A stretch of 64,000 nucleotides of DNA from a virus (lineage: Duplodnaviria; Caudoviricetes): the IMG/VR virus record IMGVR_UViG_3300037183_000141, positions 1 through 64,000 of that record; one strand, given 5' to 3'. Position 1 is the stretch's first letter. Each line of letters begins with the position of its first letter. Of this stretch, positions 10,741 to 43,311 are shown in pieces. Below the pieces are notes generated by a model. It had not been told where the DNA came from, did not search any database, and saw nothing but the letters and a program-made list of their open reading frames with translations. A program made the translations under genes and the position numbers.

Positions 10741-11302
10741 CGCGCTCGACCTTGGTCAAATAGGTCGACTTATAGCTAAGGAGGCAAGGCTTGGAGCGGG
10801 TCGGGTGCTTCACGGTTATCTCGTCTCCCTGAACATCCATGACGATCCCGCGCATCCCACGGTTCGTCCCGCTCTTGACCACGACATGGTCGTCGAGCTC
10901 AAACTCGACGTTGCGGATCGACTCCATGTTCTTCTTAATGCCGTTGATCTCATCGTCGTTGATGAGGGAGTACACCGGGGAGTTGCCGCGCGATGCGCAC
11001 ATGACCTCATTGAAATAGGAGGTATCACGCAGACGCATATACTGGACGCCCTCCTGGAACTCAATGAAGACATACCCGTCCATGTAGACGAGGATCTGGG
11101 AGTCAGAGCGAACGTCCGTGGAGAGGGACGGAACAAAGACGCTCAAAGGGCGGCCGAGCATCCTGTGGACCGACCGGGTTAGCGTTCGACTGTCCTTCTC
11201 CTGTTCGCCGGCGTGAGTGAGCTCCACGACAACCCAGCGCTTAGGGGAGGCCGAGCCTTCGTTTGAAGCCGTTTGCGAACTCTCCTTCAGATTGCGGGAC
11301 AC
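10733..11302 (-). CDS. nusG: NusG-like transcription elongation/antitermination factor
   Basis: NGN-like RWVVVEL...VFVP...YMDGYVFIE plus C-terminal KOW (DDHVVVKSGTNRGMRGIV). Confidence 0.7.
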   Translation of the reverse strand: MSRNLKESSQTASNEGSASPKRWVVVELTHAGEQEKDSRTLTRSVHRMLGRPLSVFVPSLSTDVRSDSQILVYMDGYVFIEFQEGVQYMRLRDTSYFNEVMCASRGNSPVYSLINDDEINGIKKNMESIRNVEFELDDHVVVKSGTNRGMRGIVMDVQGDEITVKHPTRSKPCLLSYKSTYLTKVERVV

Positions 11303-12641
11303 GGGACTTGTCCAACTCTACCCGAACGGTAGTTCGCTCCGGAGGAGCCTCCACCTTGACTATCTTCCGGTCCAGACTGGTGAGCGTCTCCTCCCTCGAG
11401 TAGAGAACCCCGTCGATCTCGACGGACGGGGAAGGGGTGGGGGCCGGGGGTGGCGGGGGTAGCGGGGGTGGCGGGGGTGGCGGTGACGGCGGGGATGGCG
11501 GGTTTTGGACAACCTCGACGGGAGAAGTCCGAGCCAGCCCCTCCAGAACAGGCGCCAAAAGCACAGGAGGCTGCGTCGGGGCGTACTGAGGGGGAACGAA
11601 GGTGAAGGAGTCCGACCGGAGCGGGACCGCCGGGCAACCGGAGAGGACCACGGCCTCGATGTCCGCCATGGACGGACGGTCAACGGTCCCGAGTTCCCTG
11701 GCCATCACCACCCAGTCGCGACCCCGGATAGGGAAGAAAGAGACGGGGACGGGGTAGCTCGAGACGGAGCCTATAGCGACGCGCTGGGCGCCCGTGACGG
11801 CCTCGATCATGGTGTCCCGGATCCAGGTCGGGCTCTCCCGGTGCGAAAGGTCGTCCAAGATGGCGAGGGCCGCCGGAATATCAAAATCGACAGTGGACAG
11901 AAACTTCGCGACGGCCTCATAGCTCGAGAGGCGGTAGTACTCGCCGACGAGGGCGACCGTGACCGGACCGAGAACAGACATGCCCTCGAGGGCGGTGAGG
12001 CTGGTCCGAGGGGTCCTCCGGTTCATCTGGACGATCGCGGAGAGGGCCGCGTCGTCCGCCTGAATACCGCGCTCGGCGCACACGTGGCGCAGACGCGCCT
12101 CTATCTCGGACTGCGGGGGAGCATGGACCGGATACTCCTCGACGCGGTCAACGATGGTGCCGAGAATCTTCTTCGGCTCCGTCGTGCACATGATGACAAT
12201 GAAAAGACGCGACTCTATCGCCTTCAGGAAGGCGTCCTGGGCGGGCTTCGAGAGCCTCTGCGCCTCATCCACAAGGTAGATACGGACGTCCGTCCCGTCG
12301 AACGTCCCGTAGTCCGCGTCCGAGATCATCTCCCGGATGCGGTCGACGGTTCCCTGGGAGGCCGCGTCGAGCTCTTCGACGTCCGGGTTCGTCTCCTCGA
12401 GGATGGAGACGCACGAGGGGCACTCGTTGCACGGCTCCCCGTCCCGGAGGTCCGGACACTTGATGGCCCGGGCCACGATCCTGGCCAGGCTGGTCTTCCC
12501 GCAGCCCTTCGGGCCGCTGAACATCATCGACTGGTCGGCCAGGGTGTGGCCGCGACTCCGGGACAGGATCAGCCTCTTGATGCCGTCGTTCCCAAGGACG
12601 TCGGAGAAGCGGCGGGGCCTGTAGGCAAGGTCAAACGGCAT
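11241..12641 (-). CDS. dnaX: DNA polymerase III gamma/tau clamp-loader subunit
   Basis: YRPRRFSDVLG, Walker A GPKGCGKTS, Zn motif CPD...PCNECPSC, ELDAAS, Walker B IYLVDEA; Pro-rich linker. Confidence 0.92.
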   Translation of the reverse strand: MPFDLAYRPRRFSDVLGNDGIKRLILSRSRGHTLADQSMMFSGPKGCGKTSLARIVARAIKCPDLRDGEPCNECPSCVSILEETNPDVEELDAASQGTVDRIREMISDADYGTFDGTDVRIYLVDEAQRLSKPAQDAFLKAIESRLFIVIMCTTEPKKILGTIVDRVEEYPVHAPPQSEIEARLRHVCAERGIQADDAALSAIVQMNRRTPRTSLTALEGMSVLGPVTVALVGEYYRLSSYEAVAKFLSTVDFDIPAALAILDDLSHRESPTWIRDTMIEAVTGAQRVAIGSVSSYPVPVSFFPIRGRDWVVMARELGTVDRPSMADIEAVVLSGCPAVPLRSDSFTFVPPQYAPTQPPVLLAPVLEGLARTSPVEVVQNPPSPPSPPPPPPPLPPPPPAPTPSPSVEIDGVLYSREETLTSLDRKIVKVEAPPERTTVRVELDKSRVPQSEGEFANGFKRRLGLP

Positions 12642-14352
12642 CGGGAGGCCCGAGTAGAACGTATTTCATCTTCTGTTTCCCGAAGACCTTCACATAGCCA
12701 TGCTTGACAGCATACTCTGATTCTTTCTGCCCCATGCGTGAGGCATGAGAGTATAAAGTTTTCTTATGCATTATCCATCCGTCAGAGTTTACATAATAAT
12801 AGTCAGGCTTGACGACGGAATGGAGAGCCCATCCGGCAGCCTTATATATGACCCCGGTGTGGTCGAAGGTCGTGTCTGCGAAAGAGACGATGGCCTCCGT
12901 TTTTCGGGCCGAGAAGGCAAGTGCGGAAGACCTAGATAAAAACCATGAGGCGAAATTGCGCTTATGGCGAGATGGGTGTATGCAAAATCGGTCGAGCTCA
13001 AGCACAGATGAGTACTTCATCCCCATGGAGGTGGCAACCTCCTTCCGGACCGGCGTGGAGAACTTAGCGACGGCCAATAGATTATCCCCGAGAAAAGCTC
13101 CGACCGAGACGAAGGCGGACCTACCATATCTCCCGTAATGGAAAGAATTCAGAAAATCTTCAGCCAGCCTGAATTTCGACGATGGGGAAGACTCTCTAGT
13201 GATCAGCCTTACCATGACATCACGCATGGAGAAGTCTTCGAGAACTGACGCTGCGTCCCCATGAATGAAACCGAGGATCTTCTGGCGAACGCCATGAGGG
13301 TTCAGGTAGTCGCGTTCATCAAGGTAGAAAACATGATGATCAGGATGAGAGGCGGACACGTACGAAAACTTGGAGGCATCGTTATGCTTAGCCCGCGGGA
13401 GCGAATGCCAGTATTCACCTTGGACCTCGATGAGAATTCGGTGGTCCGGAAGGAAGAAGTCGAAGACGTATGGGCCTATGGCCTTCTGCTCTTCCCATCG
13501 GATCGCAAGAGAATCAAGTATCCGAGCGGTCACGATCTCCGGCATAGATCTCCTGCCAGAGGCAAGAGATGAAGCCCTAATGGCAGCGAACCTGTCACGG
13601 AACGAAGGGTCATCCCATTGCGCCCGAGAGGCCTTGACTATCTTGGAACGATATTCATCTCTGGTCCAAAGCTGTCTCAAAGCCTCACTTTGACAAGCCC
13701 TGTAGATTGGATCCGACCAGAGAAGATTAGCGGTGGCCCGCTTCATGGAGCGAAACCCATCGCCGGACATGAGACAACGCATGAGGACGCCGTAATCCTG
13801 TTCCCACTTATTCTTGACGGAGTCGGATATTCTCTTCCTGTAAGAATCATTCGACCACATCTTCTTCATCCTATTGCTCTGAGATAGGGCGAAAGAGCCG
13901 TCATCGAGGAGTTCTATCATGGCGTTCGAGTAAGCGTTCATATACTCTGGCGACTCCATGACAGAACGTAAAGAAACAGCCCTCTTTGAGGCATATGTCT
14001 GATCGCCCCACAGAATAATGGAAGCCTTACTTCGTGCTTCCCTAGATCCAGGAAGAGCCCAGTATTTTTTCGAAGAACAGAGCTGAGAAGCCCTGTACTC
14101 ATCGGATTCCCATAGCTTCTTGGATCTAATTGATTTCCCGGAGACGAAAGAAGGGTCAGTACGTCTACACTTCGGGCACAGATAGTTACCGAACTTCGAG
14201 AAGGTTCGGAAAAAACATCTCTTTGTCGTGCGATGAGTTAGCAAGCAGGACGGGCACAAGAGGATCACTCTTGAAGTCCCCTTGTTAGGGGGTCCGAACT
14301 CTGTCTCAGTCTTCTCAGCGTCAATATGTGCGAGAAGTGCGTCCATATTCAT
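12631..14352 (-). CDS. Fusion of helical repeats, Vsr/DUF559-like endonuclease and Mom-like GNAT domain (Hef-like homing endonuclease)
   Basis: FDFFLPDHRILIEVQGEYWH (Vsr/DUF559); FLNSFHY...LELDRFC...IVSFADTTFDHTGVIYKAAGW (Mom-like GNAT); low GC; TAAAGT 6 nt before ATG. Confidence 0.7.
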   Translation of the reverse strand: MNMDALLAHIDAEKTETEFGPPNKGTSRVILLCPSCLLTHRTTKRCFFRTFSKFGNYLCPKCRRTDPSFVSGKSIRSKKLWESDEYRASQLCSSKKYWALPGSREARSKASIILWGDQTYASKRAVSLRSVMESPEYMNAYSNAMIELLDDGSFALSQSNRMKKMWSNDSYRKRISDSVKNKWEQDYGVLMRCLMSGDGFRSMKRATANLLWSDPIYRACQSEALRQLWTRDEYRSKIVKASRAQWDDPSFRDRFAAIRASSLASGRRSMPEIVTARILDSLAIRWEEQKAIGPYVFDFFLPDHRILIEVQGEYWHSLPRAKHNDASKFSYVSASHPDHHVFYLDERDYLNPHGVRQKILGFIHGDAASVLEDFSMRDVMVRLITRESSPSSKFRLAEDFLNSFHYGRYGRSAFVSVGAFLGDNLLAVAKFSTPVRKEVATSMGMKYSSVLELDRFCIHPSRHKRNFASWFLSRSSALAFSARKTEAIVSFADTTFDHTGVIYKAAGWALHSVVKPDYYYVNSDGWIMHKKTLYSHASRMGQKESEYAVKHGYVKVFGKQKMKYVLLGPPDAV

Positions 14353-27446: not shown

Positions 27447-28469
27447 TCAGAACTCGTCGTTCAGCGAGATCGCGCCCTCGACGCCCATCTGATAAGCTGA
27501 CGGGCGCCGCTCGAAGAAGTTCGTGACCTCCTGGACGTCCTGCGAGTCGAGGAAGGAGAACGGGTTCTTGGAGCCGAAGCGGCGGGGAAGCTCGAGGCTC
27601 GAGAGGCGCTGGTCGGCGCAGTACTCGAGGTAACGGCGGACGTCGCCGGTCGACAGGCCGATGACGCCGCCGGAGAGCATATCCTCGGCGAACTGCGTCT
27701 CACAGGCCACGGCCTCCTCGAGCATCGTGACGACGTCCTTGGCCAAGACGGAGTCGAAGAGACCCGGGTCCTCCCGACGGACCGTGTTCACGATCTGGAA
27801 GGCGAAGTTCATGTGCATGGACTCGTCCCGGAATACCCAGTTGGTCCCGGAAGCGAGGCCCTGCAGCAGGCCCCGCGAGCGAAGGAAGTAGACGTAGGCG
27901 AAGGCGCCGAAGAAGAACAGGCCCTCAATGCAGGAGGCGAAGCAGATGAGGTTGAGAAGGAACTGCTTACGGTCCCCCTTGGTCCTCAGCTTGTCGATCT
28001 CGCTGATCGAGTTCAGCCACTTCATGCAGAAGTCCGCCTTATGGCGGATGGAGGGAATATTCTCGACCGCCGAGAAAGCATCATTCCGGGCCTTCGGGTC
28101 CGGCACGTACGTGTCGAGGAGGGTTAGGTAGAACTGGACGTGGAGGGCCTCCTCATACAGCTGCCTCGACAGGTACATCCTGGCCTCGGGGGCGTTGATG
28201 TGCTTGTAGAGGTTTAGGACCAGGTTGTTCGAGACTATCGAGTCCCCCGTGGCGAAGAAGGCGACGAGCCGGTTCACCAGGTGGCGCTCCGAGTCCGTCA
28301 TCTTGTGCGCCAGATCCTGGACGTCGGTGGAGAAGTCGACCTCCTCCACCGTCCACGTGTTCTTCACCGCGTTGCGGTACATGTCGAAGAACTCGGGGTA
28401 GACCATGGGCCTCAGCGTGAGGCAGAGGCCGGGGTCCAGGATGTTCGAGGGACGGGATATCAGGCTCAT
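27447..28469 (-). CDS. nrdB: Ribonucleotide reductase class Ia beta subunit
   Basis: WTVEEVDFSTD, FFATGD, EEALHVQFY, IEGLFFFGAF, RDESMH, VTNFFERRPSAYQ. Confidence 0.95.
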   Translation of the reverse strand: MSLISRPSNILDPGLCLTLRPMVYPEFFDMYRNAVKNTWTVEEVDFSTDVQDLAHKMTDSERHLVNRLVAFFATGDSIVSNNLVLNLYKHINAPEARMYLSRQLYEEALHVQFYLTLLDTYVPDPKARNDAFSAVENIPSIRHKADFCMKWLNSISEIDKLRTKGDRKQFLLNLICFASCIEGLFFFGAFAYVYFLRSRGLLQGLASGTNWVFRDESMHMNFAFQIVNTVRREDPGLFDSVLAKDVVTMLEEAVACETQFAEDMLSGGVIGLSTGDVRRYLEYCADQRLSSLELPRRFGSKNPFSFLDSQDVQEVTNFFERRPSAYQMGVEGAISLNDEF

Positions 28470-30880
28470 TGGCAGGATTCACAAGACTCAGGGTTCTCGA
28501 GGGAGCAGACGACGGCGGCGAGGGCTGCCTCGTCAGACTGTGGCATGGTGGACTTGGTCTCGACGGTCGCCTTCGCGATCTTCGTGGCCGGACGGGACCT
28601 CAGGTAGTAGGTCGTCTTGAGCCGCTTCTGCCAAGCATAGTTGTACATCGAGGACAGAGGCCCGATGTTAGGGCTCTCTACAAAGAGATTCAGGGACTGA
28701 CTCTGATCGATGAACGCGCCGCGGTCCGCGGCCATGTCTATGAGCGAACGCATCGACATCTCCCAGGCGGTCCGGTAGACCAGCTTTAGGCCCGAGGGGA
28801 GCTCGTCCATGGCCTGGACGGAGCCCTCGGACAGCTTCAGACGGGACCTGGTTGCCTCGTTCCAGAGGCCGAGGTCCTTCAGGTCGTTGACGAGATATTT
28901 GTTGACCTGAATGAAGTCCCCGGACATCGTCTCCCTCTTAAAGAGGTTGGATACCTGGGGCTCGATGCACTCGTAGCAGCCGAGGATGGAGGCGATGGTG
29001 GCCGTGGGGGCTATGGCGATGAGCAGGGAGTTCCGGAGGCCGGAGGCCTTGATGCGGGCCTTGAGGTCGTTCCAGCGAGTGCCCTCGGGAACCACGCCCC
29101 AGGCGTCGAACTGGAGCTCGCCGCGGGCGGCGCGCGTCTCCGAGAACCCGGGATGGGCGCCCTTCTCCTCGGCGAGCTCGACGCTCGCCGTGATGGCGCC
29201 GTAGTAAATCTCCTCCGAGATCTTCTTGGAGATCTGGCGTGCCTCCGGGCAGTCGAAAGGGATCCGCATCTGAAAGAAGACGTCCTGAAGGCCCATCATG
29301 CCGAGGCCGACGGGGCGCCACTTCATGTTCGACGACCTCGCCGTGGGGATCGTGTAGTAGTTGATGTCGATGACGCGGTCGAGCTGACGGACCGCGGCGC
29401 GGACAGTCTTCGCGAGCTTCAGGTAGTCGAACATCGGCTTGCCGGCGACGTCCATCATGTGGCGGCCGACGTTGATAGAGCCCAGGTTGCAAACGGCCGT
29501 CTCGTCGTCCGACGACAGCTCGAGGATCTCGGTGCAGAGGTTCGAGAGATGGACGGTGCGGCCGGGGAGGGCCGTCTGGTTGCAGGCGAGGTTCGACTTG
29601 TCCTTGAAGCACATCCAACCATTGCCGGTCTGGGCGAGCGTGCGGACCATGCGGGTATATAGAGCCTGGGCCTTGACGACCTTGACCGCGCGGCCGGAGG
29701 CCTCGGCGGCCTCGTAGGCGACCTGAAAGTCGTCGCCGTAGAGGTCGGTCAGGGCGGGGAACTCCTTCGGGTCGAAGAGGCTCCAGTCCTGGTTAGCGTT
29801 GACGCGCTCCATGAACAGATCGGGGATCCAGTTTGCGATGTTCAGGTTATGCGTGCGGCGGGCCTCGTCGCCGGTGTTATCGCGAAGCTCGAGGAACTCC
29901 TCGACGTCCGAGTGCCAGGTTTCAAGGTAGACGCAGCAGGCGCCCTTCCTCTTGCTGCCCTGAGACACGGCGGCGACAGACGCGTCGAGGGTCTTAAGCC
30001 ATGGGACGATGCCGTTCGACCTGCCGTTGGTTCCCTTGATGTGCGAGCCGCGCGAGCGGACCCTGGAGTACGAAATGCCGATGCCGCCGGAGAACTTCGA
30101 GAGGCGGGCGACGTCCGCATACTTATTGTAGATCGCCTCGAGCGAGTCCTGGGGCGAGTCGAGGAGGAAGCAGCTGGAGAGCTGCTCATGGCGGGTCCCG
30201 GCGTTGAAGAGGGTCGGGGAGCTCGGGACGTACTCGAAGGACGAGAAAGACGTATAGAGCTCGATGGCCTCGGCCACGGTCTCGGACAGGGCGCACGCGA
30301 TGCGCATGAAGAACTGTTGGGGGGTCTCGAGCGCCATACGGGTCTTCGGGTGCTTCAGGAGATAGCGGTCGTAGACCGTCTGCAGGCCGAAGTAGTCGAA
30401 GTTGTCGTCGCGGTGCGTCCGGATGGCGTCGTCGAGCTTGCGGGAGTTCGCGCTCACGAAGGACTGGAGACGCTCGTTCGCCATGTCAAGGGAGGCCACC
30501 ATCAACACGGACTGAGAGAACGTCTGGATGCCCTGACCGCGGACCTCCTTGCTCATATACTCGGAGAGGAGGCGGGCGGCGAGCTTGGCATACTGGGGGT
30601 CCTCGACGGTGAGGGAGGCTGCCGTCTGTATGGAGAGCATATCGAGCTCGCGGGATGAGGTCCCGTCGAAAACGCCGTTTATCGTCTTAGAGGCGACGCG
30701 CATCGGGTCAACGTCCGGCAGGCCGTCGCAGCAGCGACGGACGGCCTTGATTATCTTGTTGATGTCGGTTGGCTCGAGGGTCCCGTTCCTCTTCCTCACG
30801 CGTATCACGGGCTCCGGAGGCGGGGGAGCACTCAGGACAGCGGACATCATGACATCAGTTTGCACGGCTTCGCTTGACAT
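28466..30880 (-). CDS. nrdA: Ribonucleotide reductase class Ia alpha subunit with ATP cone
   Basis: ATP cone VRKRNG, PSSPTLFNAG, QLSSCFL, SNLCTEI, VCNLGS, IAPTATIA, TTYYLR, C-terminal CESC; start at 30880 has AGGAGG SD. Confidence 0.95.
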   Translation of the reverse strand: MSSEAVQTDVMMSAVLSAPPPPEPVIRVRKRNGTLEPTDINKIIKAVRRCCDGLPDVDPMRVASKTINGVFDGTSSRELDMLSIQTAASLTVEDPQYAKLAARLLSEYMSKEVRGQGIQTFSQSVLMVASLDMANERLQSFVSANSRKLDDAIRTHRDDNFDYFGLQTVYDRYLLKHPKTRMALETPQQFFMRIACALSETVAEAIELYTSFSSFEYVPSSPTLFNAGTRHEQLSSCFLLDSPQDSLEAIYNKYADVARLSKFSGGIGISYSRVRSRGSHIKGTNGRSNGIVPWLKTLDASVAAVSQGSKRKGACCVYLETWHSDVEEFLELRDNTGDEARRTHNLNIANWIPDLFMERVNANQDWSLFDPKEFPALTDLYGDDFQVAYEAAEASGRAVKVVKAQALYTRMVRTLAQTGNGWMCFKDKSNLACNQTALPGRTVHLSNLCTEILELSSDDETAVCNLGSINVGRHMMDVAGKPMFDYLKLAKTVRAAVRQLDRVIDINYYTIPTARSSNMKWRPVGLGMMGLQDVFFQMRIPFDCPEARQISKKISEEIYYGAITASVELAEEKGAHPGFSETRAARGELQFDAWGVVPEGTRWNDLKARIKASGLRNSLLIAIAPTATIASILGCYECIEPQVSNLFKRETMSGDFIQVNKYLVNDLKDLGLWNEATRSRLKLSEGSVQAMDELPSGLKLVYRTAWEMSMRSLIDMAADRGAFIDQSQSLNLFVESPNIGPLSSMYNYAWQKRLKTTYYLRSRPATKIAKATVETKSTMPQSDEAALAAVVCSLENPESCESCQ

Positions 30881-31763
30881 TGTTCTTGGCCTCCTCGGAC
30901 AGTCTAATAACCTCGGCCTCAAGGCCGAGGGCTGCATATTTCTTGCCGCGCTTGTGTGCCAGGTCGAGGCGACATAGCTCGGCCAGGCTAGTCTTCAGGG
31001 ACGAAGGGCTCCACAGGCCGAGACGGGGCTCGACCACCTTCTTGAAGACGAAAGGGTGCATTTCGATGCGCTTCGCCACATCCTGCGGAGCGAGGCCGGA
31101 CGCGGACAAAAGCTCCACGCGAAGCTGCTGGATCACGTGCCTCTGGAGAAAGGCTATGATCCACCCAGTCTCATCCTGCGCCTCCTGGAGCCGGTCCACG
31201 TAGGCGACAGCTTTGACGGGGTGTCCTTCACACACGGCTTCCACTATCTCCTTTGGTGTGAGGTCCGCTGAAAACGGCAGAACCGATCTAACATCCTCGG
31301 GAGTAACCGGCCCCGAAGGCACTAACACTGACAGTTTGCGGACCTCAGAAGCGAGCTTTCTGAGACTCTTTCGGCTGTTCACAAAAAGGCCCAGCGCGAC
31401 TCTTCTTAGATCGATGTTATAGCGCTCGCCTTCTTTTACGACCCATGCGACCACCTCGTTTTTATCGTCGTACGTCTTGAGTTTCGGGAAGTCGAGACGG
31501 CGCGTCGCGGTGGCCAGCTCGAGCTTCTTCTTCGAAATGACAATAAGGACGTCCGGGTCGTTCGGGAGCTTCGGGACGGAGGTCGCCCGGACGACGAACA
31601 CGCGACGGCCTCCGCCTATCGGACGGCACGACATCTCCTCCACGTAGGCGGCCTCCTCGTCGAACCTGAGGACCGAGTCCGGGAGCATCGAGGTCGCCTC
31701 GCCGAGGGCGGCGCGCTCCATGAGGAGCTCCTCCTCACCGCTTATCAAGATAACTGTAGCCAC
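30855..31763 (-). CDS. holA: DNA polymerase III delta subunit-like
   Basis: VILISGEEELL, LASEVRKL, ITPEDV-like region, C-terminal LCRLDLAHKRG...LEAEVIRL; TAAGCT 8 nt before GTG. Confidence 0.75.
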   Translation of the reverse strand: MATVILISGEEELLMERAALGEATSMLPDSVLRFDEEAAYVEEMSCRPIGGGRRVFVVRATSVPKLPNDPDVLIVISKKKLELATATRRLDFPKLKTYDDKNEVVAWVVKEGERYNIDLRRVALGLFVNSRKSLRKLASEVRKLSVLVPSGPVTPEDVRSVLPFSADLTPKEIVEAVCEGHPVKAVAYVDRLQEAQDETGWIIAFLQRHVIQQLRVELLSASGLAPQDVAKRIEMHPFVFKKVVEPRLGLWSPSSLKTSLAELCRLDLAHKRGKKYAALGLEAEVIRLSEEAKNNVKRSRAN

Positions 31764-31774
31764 CGAAGGGTAGC

Positions 31775-32575
31775 TTACATCTTCAAAGATAATATAACAG
31801 CGTTGCGCCAGTGGATCTCCGCGTTCGCGGACGGGACGCGGACGATGTCGGCGGCGAAGCGGAGGAAAGCGAGGGCGCCCTCACGGGCGGCGGGGTCCGC
31901 CATAAGCGATAAGGCGGCCCTCCGAACGACGAGGGAGACCGCGGTCCGATCGGGGGAGCGGCCGGACTCGAGGTCCTTGACGACGGACGGGACGGCGAGC
32001 TCGAAAGACGGGTCCGCGACGGAAGAGAGGACCGACTCGTGCAGGGCGACGAAGCCGCGAGTACATAAGACCGGATAGAGGCCAGGCCTCCCGCAGGACA
32101 TACTGACAGCGAGGTCGTCCACCTCCTTCCCGAGGGAGAAGGCGAACTCGGACACCTCGGAGTCGGACAGGGGGAACCAGCGGACGTCCCGGACAACCCT
32201 AGAGAGCAGGGGAGGGAGGAGCGAGCGCGGGTCCGAGGAGACGGCGACAATACACGAGCTATCCGGGGCCTCCTCACACAACTTAAGCCACGAGTCCTGG
32301 GCAGGCTCGCTCAGCACGTCGATGTCGTCGATCAGGACCGCACGGAACGGGCTGAACGACGGGCGGTCGGAGAGGAAAGGCCGGGCCTGACGAGCGCCGT
32401 CCGGGCCGGACTCGGCGACGAGGAGGTCCGCCTCGTCGAGCGCGGACTCGAGGTAGGCCCTGACGAACGAGGCCTTCCCGACGTGCTCAGGCCCGCTCAG
32501 GGTCAGGAAGCGCGGGACGCTCTGTATCGCCGTCTCCGTCTCCCGCTGGGAGCGCTGGTTTCCGAACGTCGTCAA
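31775..32575 (-). CDS. holB: DNA polymerase III delta-prime subunit-like
   Basis: LTLSGPEHVGKA, VLIDDIDVLSEPAQDSWLKLCEE, LLPPLLSR (LLPTIRSR-like). Confidence 0.78.
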   Translation of the reverse strand: MTTFGNQRSQRETETAIQSVPRFLTLSGPEHVGKASFVRAYLESALDEADLLVAESGPDGARQARPFLSDRPSFSPFRAVLIDDIDVLSEPAQDSWLKLCEEAPDSSCIVAVSSDPRSLLPPLLSRVVRDVRWFPLSDSEVSEFAFSLGKEVDDLAVSMSCGRPGLYPVLCTRGFVALHESVLSSVADPSFELAVPSVVKDLESGRSPDRTAVSLVVRRAALSLMADPAAREGALAFLRFAADIVRVPSANAEIHWRNAVILSLKM

Positions 32576-37679: not shown

Positions 37680-38762
37680 ATGAAGACCTCGGCTAGCTCT
37701 ACTTCGGCATTAGGGACGATGGACCGTTCCCTCAAGCCAATTCTCACGTTCTCCGACCTTCCGCGTCGATACGCGACTCCGAAATCTCGGGTCCGGACCA
37801 GGGGAGCAGCGGTCGTAGCCCCCGTAGATCCGGACAGGCATCCACGACGTATCGTGTTACAAGATGCCAAGGTCCGCTCCATTGCGATGGCACTCTACAT
37901 TGAGCCTGCCGGGGACGTCCTCACCATGACCGGACGGAAGACCGGCAAGAAGGCCACGAAGAAGCCCGCGGAGAGGCCTTGGAGAGCCCGAAAGCGCGCC
38001 GCCATGCGGGAGGAGCGACGCCTCGAGAAGAAGGCCCTCGAGGCCGAGGGCAGGAAGGCCCTCATCGACGAGTGCGTTCAGCGCGTCGGCAGGCCGACGG
38101 ACCGGGAGGCGTTCCGGGAGATCCTGACCGCCCTCGTGGAGAACAATGCCATCCCGGCGGGCCTCCTGACCACGGTCCCGCAGCGCTCGACGAAGGCCGG
38201 CAAAACGCGCTTCGACCAGATCTTCGACGCCTGCATGTTCCTCGCGTTCCCCGAATACCGCCCGATCGTGCGGGATAAGGCCTTCGGGCCGATAGCGTCA
38301 CCGGACATGCGGCTGTGGCGCGCGCTCTTTCCGAAGGAGTACGGGCTATCGCACGTCGTCCTCCGGGCCCGGTCTTTCCAGGAGGCCTTCGCCCTGGCCT
38401 GCGACTACGCCTGCCGGCTCTCCCTCCGGGAGAAGCGCCGTATCCCGACCGACATGTCCATCCGCGTCCAGTTCATGTCGGACCCGAGCGTCGCCCGCAT
38501 GCTGGACATCCGGCATGCCGTGAAGGACCGGACGCGCAAGGCGTCGAACCTCCGGGGCCGGAGGTACTCGGCCAAGGCCGTCGCCGGCGCGCGCCTGGTC
38601 GCGATAGGCCGTAAGGACGGCAACAACTACAGCATTTTCAAGTACGCGGAGGACAAGGACCTCAAGCGGATCGCCGAGCTTCGCGCCGAGGTGAGGGTGT
38701 CCGCGGTGGAGATCGAGACATTCCGTCCGAAGGAGACCCCCTCGCCGTACGATGTCCCATGA
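37680..38762 (+). CDS. Basic hypothetical protein
   Basis: 3' part of ORF 37335..38762 has GC3 bias and is ATGA-coupled to purZ; start uncertain (37680 or later). Confidence 0.65.
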   Translation: MKTSASSTSALGTMDRSLKPILTFSDLPRRYATPKSRVRTRGAAVVAPVDPDRHPRRIVLQDAKVRSIAMALYIEPAGDVLTMTGRKTGKKATKKPAERPWRARKRAAMREERRLEKKALEAEGRKALIDECVQRVGRPTDREAFREILTALVENNAIPAGLLTTVPQRSTKAGKTRFDQIFDACMFLAFPEYRPIVRDKAFGPIASPDMRLWRALFPKEYGLSHVVLRARSFQEAFALACDYACRLSLREKRRIPTDMSIRVQFMSDPSVARMLDIRHAVKDRTRKASNLRGRRYSAKAVAGARLVAIGRKDGNNYSIFKYAEDKDLKRIAELRAEVRVSAVEIETFRPKETPSPYDVP

Positions 38763-39940
38763 TTGAAGGCAAGTTCAACGTGATCCTGGACCAGGCGTGG
38801 GGCTCGAGCGGCAAGGGGAAGACCTCGGCCTGGCTTGCCGACCGCTTCAACGTCACCGCGGTCTCGAGCTCCAACTTCCCGAACGCCGGCCACACGGCCC
38901 GCTTCGCGGACGGGACGAAGTTCGTAGCCAAGGCCATCCCGACCGCCGCCATCCTCCGAAAGGTCAAGGGGCTCGGCGTCGAGTGCTTCGTCTCCCCGGG
39001 ATCCGGCTTCGACCCCGTCCAGCTCATCAAGGAGTGGGAGGAATGCGGCCATCCGAAGATCCGGATCCACGCGAGGGCGAACCTCGTGACGGCGGAGCAC
39101 AAGCGACGGGAGTCGGACGGCAGCGAGTCGACGAAGCACGTCGCCTCCACGATGCAGGGGACGGCGGCGGCCATGTGCGACAAGATCCTCCGCCGCCCGG
39201 ACGCCCTCCTCGCCGACTCCATGTGGGCCCCGGCGTACGGCCTGGACGTCGACGGCCTCGAGGGACGCCTCGGCGAGCTCGTCGACAACGTCCGGGTCCA
39301 CGACGCGCTCGAGTTCCGGACAATGACCCGGAACATGATCCGCGCCGGGCAGACCTGGCTGCACGAGGGCTCCCAAGGGTACGCCCTGTCCATCGACCAC
39401 GGCTCGCACTACCCCCAGTGCACCTCCCGGAACTGCACGCTCCAGGCGCAGATGGACCACATGGCCATCCCGCCGGCGCTGGTCGGCGACGTCTACCTGA
39501 ACCTCCGCTCTAGGCCCATAAGGGTCGGGAACGTGGTCGAGAATGGAAAGCAAGTCGGATATTCGGGTGACTTCTATCCAGACTGTGAGGAGATGACATG
39601 GGCTGAGGTGGCTGAAAAAGCCGGCATGCCCCCGGAAGAGGCGGCGTCTTTGGCCGAAAGAGAGCGGACGACCGTCACGAAGCGGATTCGACGAGTAGCA
39701 ACGTTCAGTTTCGACGGCCTCAGAGATGCCGTGGCGGTAAATGGGGCCACAAAGCTCGTCATGAACTTTATTCAGTATATCGATTGGAAAGATGCCGGTC
39801 TCAGAGGCGGAAAGAGCGCATTCGAACGTCTTTCTTCGAAGAGTCGTGCCTTCATCGACCAAGTTGAAGAAGCAGCAAACCTTCCCGTAGTCTTGGTTGG
39901 TACCGGCGCTGACCATGAGGAGATGATAGAACGTTTTTGA
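38759..39940 (+). CDS. purZ: PurZ-type adenylosuccinate synthetase paralogue (candidate N6-succino-2-amino-dAMP synthase)
   Basis: DQAWGSSGKGK (Ser at the PurA catalytic Asp13 position), PNAGHT, EGSQGYALSIDHG..YP.CTSR, RPIRVGN, YSG..YPD, TTVTKRIRR..TFS, and MNFIQY in place of PurA TKLD. Confidence 0.8.
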   Translation: MIEGKFNVILDQAWGSSGKGKTSAWLADRFNVTAVSSSNFPNAGHTARFADGTKFVAKAIPTAAILRKVKGLGVECFVSPGSGFDPVQLIKEWEECGHPKIRIHARANLVTAEHKRRESDGSESTKHVASTMQGTAAAMCDKILRRPDALLADSMWAPAYGLDVDGLEGRLGELVDNVRVHDALEFRTMTRNMIRAGQTWLHEGSQGYALSIDHGSHYPQCTSRNCTLQAQMDHMAIPPALVGDVYLNLRSRPIRVGNVVENGKQVGYSGDFYPDCEEMTWAEVAEKAGMPPEEAASLAERERTTVTKRIRRVATFSFDGLRDAVAVNGATKLVMNFIQYIDWKDAGLRGGKSAFERLSSKSRAFIDQVEEAANLPVVLVGTGADHEEMIERF

Positions 39941-41163
39941 TGTTCCCTATCATGAATAGGGAACATCAAATTAAACATGGGCATTATGTCGGGGACAGAC
40001 CGAGTCCTGAATATTATTCATGGAGATCCATTAAAGCCCGGTGTTTAAGGCAGAGTCACCATAGCAACGATGTGTATGGAAAGATACCTCTGCATCCCGA
40101 GTGGGCGTCCAGTTTTTCGACGTTCTTAGCAGCAGTTGGGCCTCGTCCTTCGAAAAAACACACTCTAGACAGAATCAAAGGTGAGCTGGGATACGTCCCC
40201 GGGAACGTCCGCTGGGCACCTCGCCGTGTTCAGAACAGAAACCGGAAAGATAATGTTTGGATCGAGGCTGATGGGAAGAGGATGTGTCTGGAGGACTGGG
40301 CTGCCCATTTGGGCTGTTCTCCGGCTGCCATCAGGACGAGGATAAAGAGAGGGTGGGACCCTGTGAGGGCCGTCACGACCGTCCCAGACAAGCGCTTTCA
40401 GCTCCAGAACTTAACCCCAAATCGTAAAGTGCAGACGATGAGCGAGCTCACGGTGTCGATCTCCGACAGGGGAGAGGTCAAGGTCTTCGTGGACGGCCTC
40501 CAGGTCGGCCTGATCCAGGAGCTGACCGTCAGGGCGGCAGTGGATAGGCCGATGCCGGCCGTCGAGGTCCGCCTCCCGAAGAGCTCGATCATCGAAGCCT
40601 CGGGGGAGGCGGTAAGGGACGCCCATAAGGGGTATCTCGAGCTCCTCCGCAGGATCCCGTCGGTCGTCCTGATGAGCGGGGATGAGCCGACGGGGACGGA
40701 CAGCGAGGTCATCCTCTACTTCCTCGACCAGGCGGTCGACGGCGGCGGCCGGACGCTGACCCAGGTCATGCAGAAGGACAACTCGTGGTTCGAGCGCGCC
40801 CACGACTACATCCAGTGGATGCTGCCGACGCGCCGGCGCAGCAAGTACGAGCCGTCCGCGCCGGTCCTCACGGACCGGGATATTCAGGTCTTCCAGGTTA
40901 GGCGCGACCTCCGGGAGGCCTACTCGTTCGGCGTCGACCGCGTGAAGCGTTTTCTCGAGCTCGACCAGATGTGCCCGGTCTGGGTCCGCCGGAAGGACCA
41001 TAACCACAAGCGGATCTCCCGCCTCATCGAGAGCCTCATGGACCTCGGGTTCGAGGAGCGCGCCCGCCGCGTCCTCGAGCAGGTCCTCCGCATCGAGCGG
41101 GCGAACCCGGACATCATCGACCCGGAGGCCGTGGAGCACTGGAAGCAAGCCTGTGCCCGCTGA
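39937..41163 (+). CDS. HNH homing endonuclease module fused in frame to an OGFr-like domain protein
   Basis: N-terminal EYYSWRSIKARC...HTLDRI...GYVPGNVRWA...QNRN (HNH, low GC); no stop before MSELT at 40438. Confidence 0.75.
   Translation: MMFPIMNREHQIKHGHYVGDRPSPEYYSWRSIKARCLRQSHHSNDVYGKIPLHPEWASSFSTFLAAVGPRPSKKHTLDRIKGELGYVPGNVRWAPRRVQNRNRKDNVWIEADGKRMCLEDWAAHLGCSPAAIRTRIKRGWDPVRAVTTVPDKRFQLQNLTPNRKVQTMSELTVSISDRGEVKVFVDGLQVGLIQELTVRAAVDRPMPAVEVRLPKSSIIEASGEAVRDAHKGYLELLRRIPSVVLMSGDEPTGTDSEVILYFLDQAVDGGGRTLTQVMQKDNSWFERAHDYIQWMLPTRRRSKYEPSAPVLTDRDIQVFQVRRDLREAYSFGVDRVKRFLELDQMCPVWVRRKDHNHKRISRLIESLMDLGFEERARRVLEQVLRIERANPDIIDPEAVEHWKQACAR
40438..41163 (+). CDS. OGFr (opioid growth factor receptor) conserved-domain-like protein, probably independently started
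   Basis: HDYIQWMLP...S.YEPSAPVLT and DHNHKRISRLIESL..LG motifs; TAAAGT 7 nt before ATG 40438; GC3 returns to genome level. Confidence 0.65.
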   Translation: MSELTVSISDRGEVKVFVDGLQVGLIQELTVRAAVDRPMPAVEVRLPKSSIIEASGEAVRDAHKGYLELLRRIPSVVLMSGDEPTGTDSEVILYFLDQAVDGGGRTLTQVMQKDNSWFERAHDYIQWMLPTRRRSKYEPSAPVLTDRDIQVFQVRRDLREAYSFGVDRVKRFLELDQMCPVWVRRKDHNHKRISRLIESLMDLGFEERARRVLEQVLRIERANPDIIDPEAVEHWKQACAR

Positions 41164-41395
41164 CCGCCCGAGGGTCTTTCAGCCGGGGACCCTGACCGTG
41201 GTCTACGGTCCGGACGGCAGGGCGGTCTACGCCGGCGCCGTGCTCCTGACGAAGGCGGACTATGTGCACGCGGGCGCGACCGTGAGGACGCAGGTCTTCT
41301 TCCGGATGGCGGGGCACGGCGAGGAACTCCTGCTGGACGAGGAGATGCGGGCGGTCCTGGCCCTCGGCTACGACGCTATTCGTCTGTCGTACTGA
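41153..41395 (+). CDS. Small hypothetical protein
   Basis: GC3-biased ORF overlapping the upstream stop. Confidence 0.55.
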   Translation: MPADRPRVFQPGTLTVVYGPDGRAVYAGAVLLTKADYVHAGATVRTQVFFRMAGHGEELLLDEEMRAVLALGYDAIRLSY

Positions 41396-41960
41396 GCGGG
41401 TCGTCCGTCTTCCGCTTGCGCTTGAGGTGGATCCCAATCTGGTCCGGGTTGTCCACCATGTACCTATGCACGCGCTCGAAGTAGCCCTTGAGGGGCTGCG
41501 CCGCGTCGCGCATGAGAAGGCGCTCGAACATGAGGAAGCCCTCCGGGTCCTCGGTCCAGAGCCAGTCCTCCGTGATGGGGACGCCGGGCGAGACCTGGCT
41601 CCAGGTGTTCCCGTGCGGGAACATGAGCAGTATGTACTCCGTCTTGGCGAAGTGCGGGTTGGGCATCGCCACGAACTTCTCGTGGCGCTTGACGGAGAAG
41701 AACGTCCCAGGGGGGAGCTCGACCCCGTCGTGCGAGGACGTGACCCAGCGCTTGATGCTCATCCACTTCGTCTCGGGCGTCTTTATCCCGGACGACTTCC
41801 GGCACTTGAGGGAGCAGCTGTAGAGGGCGGACGGCGAGAGGCCGCACGTCCACGGCCTGAAGTCCTCGGGTATGCCCGGCACGCGGTGCATGGAGTCGAC
41901 CCAGTACGACTCTTTCGAGATCCTCTGTTGTATGCTCGACCTAATTTCGTTGTCCATCAT
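41376..41960 (-). CDS. Hypothetical protein
   Basis: GC3-biased; start placed at MMDNEIR (41960). Confidence 0.6.
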   Translation of the reverse strand: MMDNEIRSSIQQRISKESYWVDSMHRVPGIPEDFRPWTCGLSPSALYSCSLKCRKSSGIKTPETKWMSIKRWVTSSHDGVELPPGTFFSVKRHEKFVAMPNPHFAKTEYILLMFPHGNTWSQVSPGVPITEDWLWTEDPEGFLMFERLLMRDAAQPLKGYFERVHRYMVDNPDQIGIHLKRKRKTDDPLSTTDE

Positions 41961-41973
41961 GGAGGTATCGGAT

Positions 41974-43311
41974 ATGAGCGCTACGGACGTCTTCTGCATC
42001 ACCGACCAGGACGGGAGACTCCTCCCTCCGGCCGTACAGGCCACTGTACTGGCTAAGTACTCGAGATCGCCCCTCTCGGCCCGGGAGCTGGTACGAGACC
42101 TTACAGAGGCGGCGGCCGACAAGTTCCAGGAGAAGTGGGTTGTCGGCTACGGGCACAACTCGGTGGCGGAGCTCGCCGTGGTTCCCGTGTGCTTCGAGGG
42201 CGTCTCCATCGTGGCCTCCAAGTTCATCGAGGGCTGGCAGCGCGCGGGCTACTCCGAGAAGAGCACCCGGTACCAGGTGTTCTCCCGGGACTCGTTCATC
42301 ACGCCGCCCGGAGCCCCGGCCACTATGAAGAAGTTCGCGGAGCGCTTCTACGACGCCTACGAGCGCCTTCTCCCGAAGGTGACCATGCATGTGGCAAAGC
42401 TCGTCGGGGACGACATGGACAACCCGAAGGCCTCGACGAGGGCGCGAGCGTTCGACAACGTCCGATACCTCCTCCCGGCCGGGACCGGGACGAACGTCGC
42501 CGCGGTCGTGAACATGCTCGACGCCCGCCGGATGGTCTCCGGGCTAAAAGGGCATGCCAACCCGGAGTTCCAGGCCCTGGGCGAGAAGATGGAGGCCGCC
42601 GTCACGGCGCTGGCCCCCACTCTGGTCCGCCACACGGAGCCGGACGGGTTTCAGCTGCCCGTGAAGGGCCTCGGAAACCTGCCCGAGGACTTCAGTCACG
42701 ACGACCCTACGCCGTACGTCAAGCTGAACAAGCCTTACCTTCTGCCCGCCCCGGCCCTCGAGCAGGCCGCCTTCGAGTCCGCGGTGGTCGACCTCCACGG
42801 GATGGACTGGGCGAGCTTCTCCGCCTTCATGGAGACGCGCCCGGCCTACTCGGAGGTCCCGAACGTTTTCAAGACCGTGAAGCTCTCGTTCGAGGTCATG
42901 ATGGACTACGGCGCTTACAGGGACCTCCAGAGACACCGGCGCTGCGAGCAGTTTGCCGAGCCGCTCGGGATCCACTATGGCTACGTCGTCCCGGAGGACA
43001 TCGTCGGCACGGAGTTCGAGGGCGAGTACCGGCAGGCCATGGAGGCCATCGACGCCTACGACGACGAGGCGGTCATTCATGACCAAGACCTCTTTCAGTA
43101 CATGATCCCGCTCGGCTACCTGCATCGCTCCCTGTTCCAGATGGACCTGAAGGAGTGGTACTATCTGACCGAGCTCCGGACGAAGCCGCAGGGCCATATC
43201 TCGTACCGTCGGATTGCCTACGAGATCTTCCGGATCGGGAGTGAGCGCTTACCGGGCCTCACCGGATGGTGTCGTGCCATCAAACCCGACGCCGTCGGGG
43301 TCCACCACTGA
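41974..43311 (+). CDS. thyX: Flavin-dependent thymidylate synthase, tandem-domain type
   Basis: AKYSRS, GYGHNSVAE, YSEKSTRYQ, ARAFDNVRYLLP in domain 1; YRDLQRHRR, ELRTKPQGHISYR in domain 2; GGAGG SD. Confidence 0.88.
   Translation: MSATDVFCITDQDGRLLPPAVQATVLAKYSRSPLSARELVRDLTEAAADKFQEKWVVGYGHNSVAELAVVPVCFEGVSIVASKFIEGWQRAGYSEKSTRYQVFSRDSFITPPGAPATMKKFAERFYDAYERLLPKVTMHVAKLVGDDMDNPKASTRARAFDNVRYLLPAGTGTNVAAVVNMLDARRMVSGLKGHANPEFQALGEKMEAAVTALAPTLVRHTEPDGFQLPVKGLGNLPEDFSHDDPTPYVKLNKPYLLPAPALEQAAFESAVVDLHGMDWASFSAFMETRPAYSEVPNVFKTVKLSFEVMMDYGAYRDLQRHRRCEQFAEPLGIHYGYVVPEDIVGTEFEGEYRQAMEAIDAYDDEAVIHDQDLFQYMIPLGYLHRSLFQMDLKEWYYLTELRTKPQGHISYRRIAYEIFRIGSERLPGLTGWCRAIKPDAVGVHH

Follow-up and report, generated by a model that had tools for sequence, protein, structure and literature searches.

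PurZ is the enzyme by which small phages swap adenine for 2-aminoadenine (Z) in their DNA. The closest described representatives are those of the phages phiVC8 (structures 6FKO, 6FM1, and 6TNH), S-2L (7ODX), and SH-Ab 15497. S-2L carries the gene in a datZ-mazZ-purZ triad, and phiVC8 and SH-Ab 15497 carry the polymerase DpoZ. A second group, PurZ0, is represented by Arthrobacter phage Preamble, Gordonia phage Sapo, and Streptomyces phage Hiyaa; PurZ0 phages use Dut-like and NDT-type helpers (PMC12884076). In the Z-pathway literature cited here, the characterized Z-genome phages are small, with references of 39-45 kb and purZ-positive phage records shown up to ~83 kb. The present analysis concerns a purZ gene on the IMG/VR viral contig IMGVR_UViG_3300037183_000141 (G000), which is linear and 76,463 bp long; its bases 1-64000 are the stretch analyzed, hereafter the window. 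The gene in question is:

38759..39940, plus strand: intact purZ, of the succino-aminodeoxyadenylate synthase type, 393 amino acid residues with an ATG start, identified by profiles, residues, and tree.

By all sequence tests run, this gene appears to encode a true PurZ. The best explanation of the locus, at a probability of roughly 0.7, is that it belongs to a lineage of 360-436 kb phages that would make Z-DNA by the known route, with helper genes dispersed over the genome and a family A polymerase. An initial annotation, made from the DNA letters alone, had called the gene PurZ-type and not PurA, and this call is borne out by residues, profile scores, matches to solved structures, and the tree.

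The product matches the adenylosuccinate synthetase family PF00709 (Adenylsucc_synt) with 102 bits in Pfam. Among NCBIfam models, its top match is the PurZ model NF038379 (188.3 bits), followed by the archaeal-type PurA model (163 bits); the protein lies far under the cut-offs of the PurA models. The best match among the PHROG families is likewise PurZ (PHROG 1211, E = 1e-53). The closest solved structures are phiVC8 PurZ (6FKO, E = 8e-32) and S-2L PurZ (7ODX, E = 2e-28), with the archaeal Pyrococcus PurA as the next structure match (E = 5e-26). The PurZ proteins of phiVC8, S-2L, and SH-Ab 15497 are like the window protein in family, in fold as judged by sequence, and in major clade, and they have in common with it the serine at the Asp13 site, the TTVTK segment, and the NFxxY ATP motif. 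Identity to them nevertheless reaches just 29-33% (tblastn), and the window protein is the longer one (393 against 343-387 residues) owing to clade-specific inserts and a PurA-like C-terminal segment. Unlike the known PurZ genes, it resides in a genome of ~400 kb, apart from the helper genes, and a few of its metagenome homologs carry inteins.

A search of 50,697 phage records returned 205 matches, all annotated as PurZ or PurA-like, and a megablast of the 20 kb around purZ against the same records gave no match. Close homologs are found in metagenomes, where more than 700 proteins match at E<=1e-10. The 120 best of these are 63-90% identical to the window PurZ and come from contigs as long as 445 kb. 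A PurZ-like gene with 42% identity also occurs in a cultured myxobacterium, Chondromyces apiculatus DSM 436 (L129, NZ_ASRX01000018.1:2044-9138), where it may belong to a prophage or to the cell itself. Close purZ copies further appear on short contigs of two metagenome-assembled genomes (Lentisphaeria and Methylobacter) and are probably mis-binned phage DNA.

The traits that differentiate PurZ from PurA and PurZ0 were read from a residue alignment of the window protein with phiVC8, S-2L, and SH-Ab 15497 PurZ, the three PurZ0 proteins, and E. coli PurA. Three segments separate the groups:

P-loop: WGSSGKG in the window; [FY]GSTGKG in known PurZ; [FY]GSEAKG in PurZ0; WGDEGKG in E. coli PurA.
Middle segment: TTVTKR in the window; TTVTK[KL] in known PurZ; TTVT[QKN]K in PurZ0; GATTGR in E. 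coli PurA.
Nucleotide motif: MNFIQY in the window; LNFxxY in known PurZ; LTM[LV]D[QS] or LSFADQ in PurZ0; LTKLDV in E. coli PurA.

Relative to E. coli PurA, the window protein thus replaces Asp13 by Ser, TKLD by NFIQY, and GATTGR by TTVTKR. Ser16 of the window aligns with the catalytic Asp13 of E. coli PurA and with S14 of VpPurZ. W14 corresponds to phiVC8 F12, T304 to T262, and F337/Y340 to F295/Y298. In phiVC8 numbering, the published roles are placement of S14 at the PurA Asp13 site, contacts of F12 and T262 with deoxyguanosine monophosphate (dGMP), and stacking of F295 and Y298 on ATP (bioRxiv 10.1101/2025.10.22.683976). The dGMP residues of PurZ that accommodate the 2-amino group are kept in the window (W14, T304); W14 is aromatic, and the aligned known PurZ proteins carry F or Y at that site. 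The ATP motif NFxxY (F337, Y340) stands where PurA has the GTP motif TKxD. The substrates of the window enzyme would accordingly read as dGMP and ATP, as predicted from these positions. K19 of the P-loop, H45 of NAGH, Q206 of EGxQG, and the pair R311/R312 are invariant in the alignment. The P-loop, NAGHT, and the arginine pair are also common to E. coli PurA and archaeal PurA (P. horikoshii, 5K7X/2D7U), and the Q-G core of the PurA motif EGAQG is shared, the window reading EGSQG.

The same signature extends to the metagenome homologs, and all 150 representatives listed are of the PurZ type. In an alignment of 137 sequences, made up of 126 full-length representatives at 50% identity and 11 references including the window, Ser occupies the Asp13 column in 134. 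These comprise all 10 PurZ and PurZ0 rows, the window among them, and 124 of the 126 representatives; the remaining two representatives are gapped at this column, and the sole Asp is that of E. coli PurA. N-F-x-x-Y is present in 95 of the 137. All three substitutions named by the initial annotation, WGSSGKG with Ser in place of Asp13, LSIDHG in place of LDIDHG, and MNFIQY in place of LTKLDV, align as it described. LSIDHG is not diagnostic, as the site varies among PurZ and PurZ0. With PurZ0 the window protein shares the overall family and the serine at the Asp13 site; it differs in having GSSGKG and N-F-x-x-Y where PurZ0 has GSEAKG and T-M-x-D or S-F-x-D, and it falls outside the basal PurZ0 clade.

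A phylogeny, suggested by the initial annotation, was computed with IQ-TREE (quick search, LG+G4, 80 rows) and rooted on E. coli PurA. Branch support is given as the Shimodaira-Hasegawa-like approximate likelihood ratio (SH-aLRT). PurZ0 is the first to branch off (SH-aLRT 100), and the remaining 76 rows form one clade (SH-aLRT 94) that holds the known PurZ proteins and the window, with PurZ0 outside. Within it, the window belongs to a 42-row clade (SH-aLRT 97) whose sister (SH-aLRT 89) consists of 23 rows including phiVC8, S-2L, SH-Ab 15497, and Burkholderia BCSR129 PurZ. The window protein thus falls within the radiation of ATP-type PurZ proteins, separate from both PurZ0 and E. coli PurA.

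Membership in the adenylosuccinate synthetase family, the score on the archaeal PurA model, and the retention of the PurA-like C-terminal segment missing from short PurZ proteins would also be expected of a PurA-like auxiliary metabolic enzyme that converts inosine monophosphate (IMP) to adenylosuccinate for AMP supply, or of an enzyme repurposed for a role unrelated to DNA composition. Such an enzyme is highly improbable here: both the catalytic Asp13 and the GTP-specifying TKxD of PurA are absent, having given way to Ser and NFxxY, the residues accommodating the 2-amino group are kept, the protein nests within PurZ in the tree, and the genomes of relatives also hold helper families that handle dATP and dGTP. 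Repurposing, one of the options left by the initial annotation, is not indicated, every known specificity residue being kept.

CheckV rates the 76,463-bp contig 18% complete; the genome would therefore measure roughly 400 kb. The contig proteins are colinear with positions 366-421 kb of G001 (IMGVR_UViG_3300032782_000001), including the purZ region, and G001 is a genome of 436,316 bp with terminal repeats that is rated 100% complete. More generally, the window is syntenic with complete phages of 360-436 kb; the five complete close relatives referred to below are G001, G003, G005, G006, and G007. The term "jumbo phage" used by the initial annotation is in this way supported indirectly, by the low completeness and by synteny with a complete 436-kb genome. 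An IMG/VR scan yielded 49 purZ-positive viral contigs, many of them 200-436 kb long, and the GC content of the fetched purZ loci ranges from 31% to 65%.

Described Z-genome phages pair purZ with an HD-domain enzyme (DatZ) and a MazG-like enzyme (MazZ), and the initial annotation had reported neither in the window. This is true even for the whole 76-kb contig, in which a profile search gave no HD, DUF550, or MazG match. The absence is uninformative because the contig is only 18% complete, and the "missing" datZ and mazZ are probably a fragment effect. In each of the five complete close relatives, a YfbR-like HD gene, belonging to the Pfam families by which DatZ is defined, has a MazG-like gene immediately after it; besides G001, the adjacent pair is found in G003, G004, G005, G006, G007, and G011. 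In G001, it lies at 168.8-170 kb and encodes a 218-residue HD protein and then a 167-residue protein. The HD protein matches PF12917 (YfbR-like) with 65 bits and also PF13023 (HD_3); among structures, its match to DatZ (6ZPA) has E = 0.002 and that to YfbR has E = 1e-9. PF12917 scores in the five complete close relatives range from 65 to 87 bits. At the DatZ positions W20/I22, the HD proteins of these jumbo phages read R-[Y/F]-[S/N]-[S/T], with Y/F and S/T in place of W20 and I22. Y20-T/S22 is a published alternative to W20-I22 that is prevalent in enzymes of dZ-enriched contigs (bioRxiv 10.1101/2025.10.22.683976). An HD match in G002 (L003) was set aside, being a different HD protein of ~294 residues on an AT-rich contig.

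For the MazG-like protein, a Foldseek search with the AlphaFold model (predicted local distance difference test, pLDDT, 85.4) gave matches to the dCTPases of human and mouse, to integron iMazG, and to Bacillus MazG, at probabilities of 0.97-1.00 and template-modeling (TM) scores of up to 0.69. The protein gives no match to PF04447 (DUF550) in the relatives, and its closest counterparts are dCTPase and iMazG, not MazZ or DUF550. The putative helper set of the complete relatives comprises the same families as the S-2L triad plus the DpoZ of phiVC8 and SH-Ab 15497, namely YfbR-like/HD_3, the all-alpha MazG superfamily, and family A polymerase with exonuclease. Unlike the S-2L triad, the genes are dispersed; in G001, purZ stands ~230 kb from the HD and MazG-like pair. 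Corresponding genes of the window phage would lie in the unsequenced 80% of its genome.

The polymerase of G001 is a single family A enzyme of 965 residues (222 bits), and this genome has neither a Pol III alpha nor a family B polymerase. Each of the five complete close relatives, G001 included, encodes a family A polymerase of ~950 residues that matches a 3'-5' exonuclease weakly, and none of them a Pol III alpha; throughout the close clade, the family A gene always lies ~10 kb from the HD and MazG-like pair. Of 16 large purZ-positive contigs, 15 have a family A polymerase, every complete contig among them. Pol III alpha is encoded by two partial contigs, G004 and G011, and by the more distant G013-G017.

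For the window itself, the initial annotation had listed genes of a Pol III-type replisome, namely DnaX, HolA, HolB, and DnaN; among these, only two clamp-loader-type AAA+ genes are confirmed:

11241..12641, minus strand: clamp-loader-type AAA+ subunit (PF13177, 82 bits).
31775-32575, minus strand: second copy of a clamp-loader-type AAA+ subunit (PF13177, 31 bits).

From these genes and the missing helpers, the initial annotation had proposed that other accessory genes might serve to make Z-DNA here and that a family C polymerase (Pol III alpha) might copy it. For the window phage, this is very unlikely. The clamp-loader genes on a contig devoid of HD, MazG, and DUF550 genes would fit it, as would the example of G013-G017, which have Pol III alpha and no YfbR-like HD; however, the contig is just 18% complete, synteny ties its purZ region to the five complete close relatives, and these lack Pol III alpha and combine a family A polymerase with the HD and MazG-like pair. 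The puzzle of missing helpers next to a Pol III-type replisome dissolves because the complete relatives hold the helpers and the family A polymerase elsewhere in the genome. They carry the known families, dispersed, with a family A replicase, and the search for datZ, mazZ/DUF550, and polymerase type advised by the initial annotation finds HD, MazG-like, and family A genes in them, but no DUF550.

The contigs G013-G017 (L068, L071, L086, L072, and L073) form a more distant purZ-positive group of 228-395 kb, three of them rated 98-100% complete. Their PurZ proteins show 42-46% identity, their Pol III alpha is often in pieces, and only weak family A matches of ~400 residues were found. It is to this group that the combination of Z with a family C polymerase would apply.

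With these elements, the preferred reading, in which a true PurZ acts within a dispersed but conventional pathway, can be set out stepwise. Z-DNA synthesis in the lineage probably follows the known route. The PurZ product, succino-aminodeoxyadenylate (dSMP), would be converted to the Z monophosphate (dZMP) by an adenylosuccinate lyase, which the host would provide or, in some relatives, possibly the phage itself, and kinases would raise dZMP to the triphosphate (dZTP). By analogy with MazZ and DatZ, dGMP would come from the MazG/DCTPP1-like and YfbR-like HD pair, which would also clear dATP/dAMP, and genome replication by the family A polymerase would insert Z instead of A. A Lyase_1 protein of ~480 residues (PF00206, 162-189 bits) occurs in G003 (C1:82135-82980) and G005 (C1:351305-352129), where it is possibly the phage's own adenylosuccinate lyase for the step from dSMP to dZMP; G001, G006, and G007 have none.

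Several observations weigh against this reading. The window protein misses the curated cut-off of NF038379 (188.3 against 300 bits); this is a narrow PurZ naming model of type "exception", and a score below 300 bits lies outside its cut-off, not outside the enzyme family. Identity to any PurZ among the 50,697 phage records is at most 36%, and the tree comes from a quick, short search without archaeal PurA. The helper genes are observed in relatives only, none being on the window's contig. Their HD family matches E. coli YfbR, a deoxynucleoside monophosphate (dNMP) phosphatase, more closely (E = 3e-12) than it matches S-2L DatZ (E = 1e-4). The MazG-like match is weak by sequence (best PF12643 E = 7e-6), and the G001 copy stays below the Pfam cut-off (19.7 against 27 bits, the only score listed). 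The family A polymerase is just 23-35% identical to phage PolA proteins. Lastly, the association of purZ with the helpers may be mere shared ancestry because purZ-negative relatives were not found: scans with the HD profile and with a profile of the gene upstream of purZ gave the same purZ-positive contigs, or fragments mostly from purZ-positive samples.

The position of the HD family also bears on how dATP would be removed. A two-step route, in which the MazG-like protein would turn dATP or dGTP into dNMP and the HD protein would turn dAMP into deoxyadenosine (dA), is as plausible as DatZ-type triphosphohydrolysis because the family is nearer to the dNMP phosphatase YfbR than to DatZ. Under a further explanation, PurZ is active and substitution is partial or conditional, with Z mixed with A and possibly combined with Mom-type N6 acylation as layers of anti-restriction. 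An HD protein closer to a dNMP phosphatase than to DatZ, a dATP triphosphohydrolase, might remove dATP less completely, which would favor such mixing, and the window encodes a Mom-nuclease fusion:

12631..14352, minus strand: Mom-family domain (adenine N6 acylation) fused to a Vsr-like nuclease (PF25680, 73.8 bits; Vsr, E = 3e-4).

Homologs of this Mom-Vsr fusion stand immediately beside purZ in at least 8 of the 49 related loci: just upstream of it in L071 and L084, and, in L043, L044, L045, L077, L079, and L059, in the slot directly 3' of it. The arrangement could mean that two adenine-directed systems are functionally linked, or that insertions share a hot spot there. Jumbo-phage proteins in which a Mom domain is joined to a restriction-type endonuclease are already described (PMC7824862). 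The fusion is not a core partner of purZ because G001 lacks it; the helper families occur in the relatives; and the Z phages characterized so far are reported to be completely substituted (PMC12884076). On balance, partial or conditional substitution is unlikely, if less so than either a PurA-like enzyme or a family C polymerase.

If these phages of 360-436 kb are Z-substituted, base replacement would extend to genomes ten times larger and to hosts of very different GC content. The set of PurZ, HD, MazG, and family A polymerase would then work although spread over hundreds of kilobases. Enzymology and work on synthetic Z-DNA can also draw on the lineage for divergent variants of PurZ, of DatZ-like proteins, and of the polymerase. 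Full-text literature searches for PurZ combined with jumbo or huge phages gave nothing relevant, and the combination is unmentioned in the overviews PMC7824862 and PMC13282480 and in the Z-pathway papers PMC12884076 and bioRxiv 10.1101/2025.10.22.683976.

The gene order around purZ is conserved. In the nearest relatives of the locus (L130, L131, and L132), whose PurZ is 90% identical to that of the window, it runs as follows: a 278-residue gene, purZ, a 241-residue OGFr_N-like gene, an 80-residue gene, a minus-strand gene of ~171-190 residues, and a long thyX. The first of these corresponds in the window to:

37926..38762, plus strand: conserved gene of ~278 residues that overlaps the purZ start by 4 nt, called as 278 residues in L130 and L131.

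This gene lies directly 5' of purZ in 18 of the 18 IMG/VR contigs that carry it. A longer open reading frame (ORF) from 37335 is present in the window; its start is probably not the real one and was rejected in favor of ~37926. The product belongs to no Pfam or PHROG family. Its AlphaFold2 (AF2) model has a pLDDT of 76.6; the best Foldseek match against the PDB has E = 0.54, the best hit of a wide VIA search (Z = 5.1 over 60 residues) is not meaningful, and there is no usable Atlas match. The protein could be an unrecognized partner of PurZ. A joint proposal, in which the whole lineage, spanning 34-65% GC, would be fully Z-substituted and have the largest Z-DNA genomes known, the upstream protein of 255-278 residues would join the Z pathway as a new component, and Mom-type N6 acylation would be added to Z in some members, is unlikely.

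Directly 3' of purZ, the window departs from its nearest relatives by an inserted nuclease domain and a recoded gene end:

39937..40436, plus strand: HNH endonuclease domain directly 3' of purZ, fused in frame to the OGFr_N-like gene (PHROG 3377, E = 7e-37).
39479..39940, plus strand: recoded 3' third of purZ with low GC content at third codon positions (GC3), a probable homing co-conversion tract.
40437..41163, plus strand: OGFr_N-like gene (PF04664, 30.5 bits; Atlas neighbors are OGFr_N clusters).

The HNH domain is absent at purZ from L130, L131, L132, and G001, and in L130 (3614-4339), L131 (6248-6973), and L132 the OGFr_N-like gene is a separate gene of 241 residues directly after purZ. 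GC3 drops within purZ from ~0.95 to 0.54 at ~39480, stays low through the HNH domain, and rises again at ~40447. When purZ is compared with that of the HNH-free L130 at the DNA level, the first 720 nt show an identity of 0.89-0.99 and the last 460 nt one of 0.62-0.73. L130, a near-identical HNH-free allele, keeps the high GC3, and L131 has the recoded low-GC3 third without the HNH domain. Identity over the three thirds of the protein is 100%, 95%, and 73% for P0003 and 88%, 89%, and 94% for P0002. TTVTKR and NFIQY are intact in the recoded part. The HNH domain and the recoded end of purZ form the pattern expected of homing with flank co-conversion, which is the probable origin of the tract. 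The same slot holds an HNH gene in L038. Searching the literature for the role of OGFr_N in prokaryotes or phages gave nothing useful.

Mobile elements also enter purZ itself. Five metagenome homologs of 750-1200 residues (P0121, P0122, P0123, P0134, and P0138) contain one or two inteins with LAGLIDADG endonucleases, inserted near the catalytic motifs NAGHT and EGSQG. Together with the HNH domain and its recoded flank, these inteins are signs that purZ is a conserved core gene, and such homing-endonuclease traffic suggests a gene under strong constraint.

Further downstream, the conserved order continues with:

41153..41395, plus strand: small conserved gene of 80 residues, called at the matching place in L130 and L131.
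41376..41891, minus strand: conserved gene of ~171 residues between purZ and thyX, with no Pfam match, called in L130 and L131.
41872..43311, plus strand: long flavin-dependent thymidylate synthase of the ThyX type (PF02511, 108 bits over two stretches).

Two opposite-strand ORFs overlap between the 80-residue gene and thyX, at 41376-41891 (minus) and 41488-41823 (plus), and both are coding-like by GC3. The plus-strand ORF was rejected, being conserved in 3 loci against 17 for the minus-strand one, and the gene calls of L130 and L131 agree with this choice. ThyX has 479 residues, about twice the 191-position Pfam Thy1 model, and is conserved after purZ in 14 loci; its start perhaps lies near 41890. 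Nucleotide supply is further represented in the window by:

27447..30937, minus strand: class I ribonucleotide reductase, small and large subunits, for the supply of deoxynucleoside diphosphates (dNDP) (PF00268, 272 bits; PF02867, 635 bits).

Other replication genes of the window encode a RecD2-type helicase, a Toprim protein, and a FEN-type 5'-3' exonuclease.

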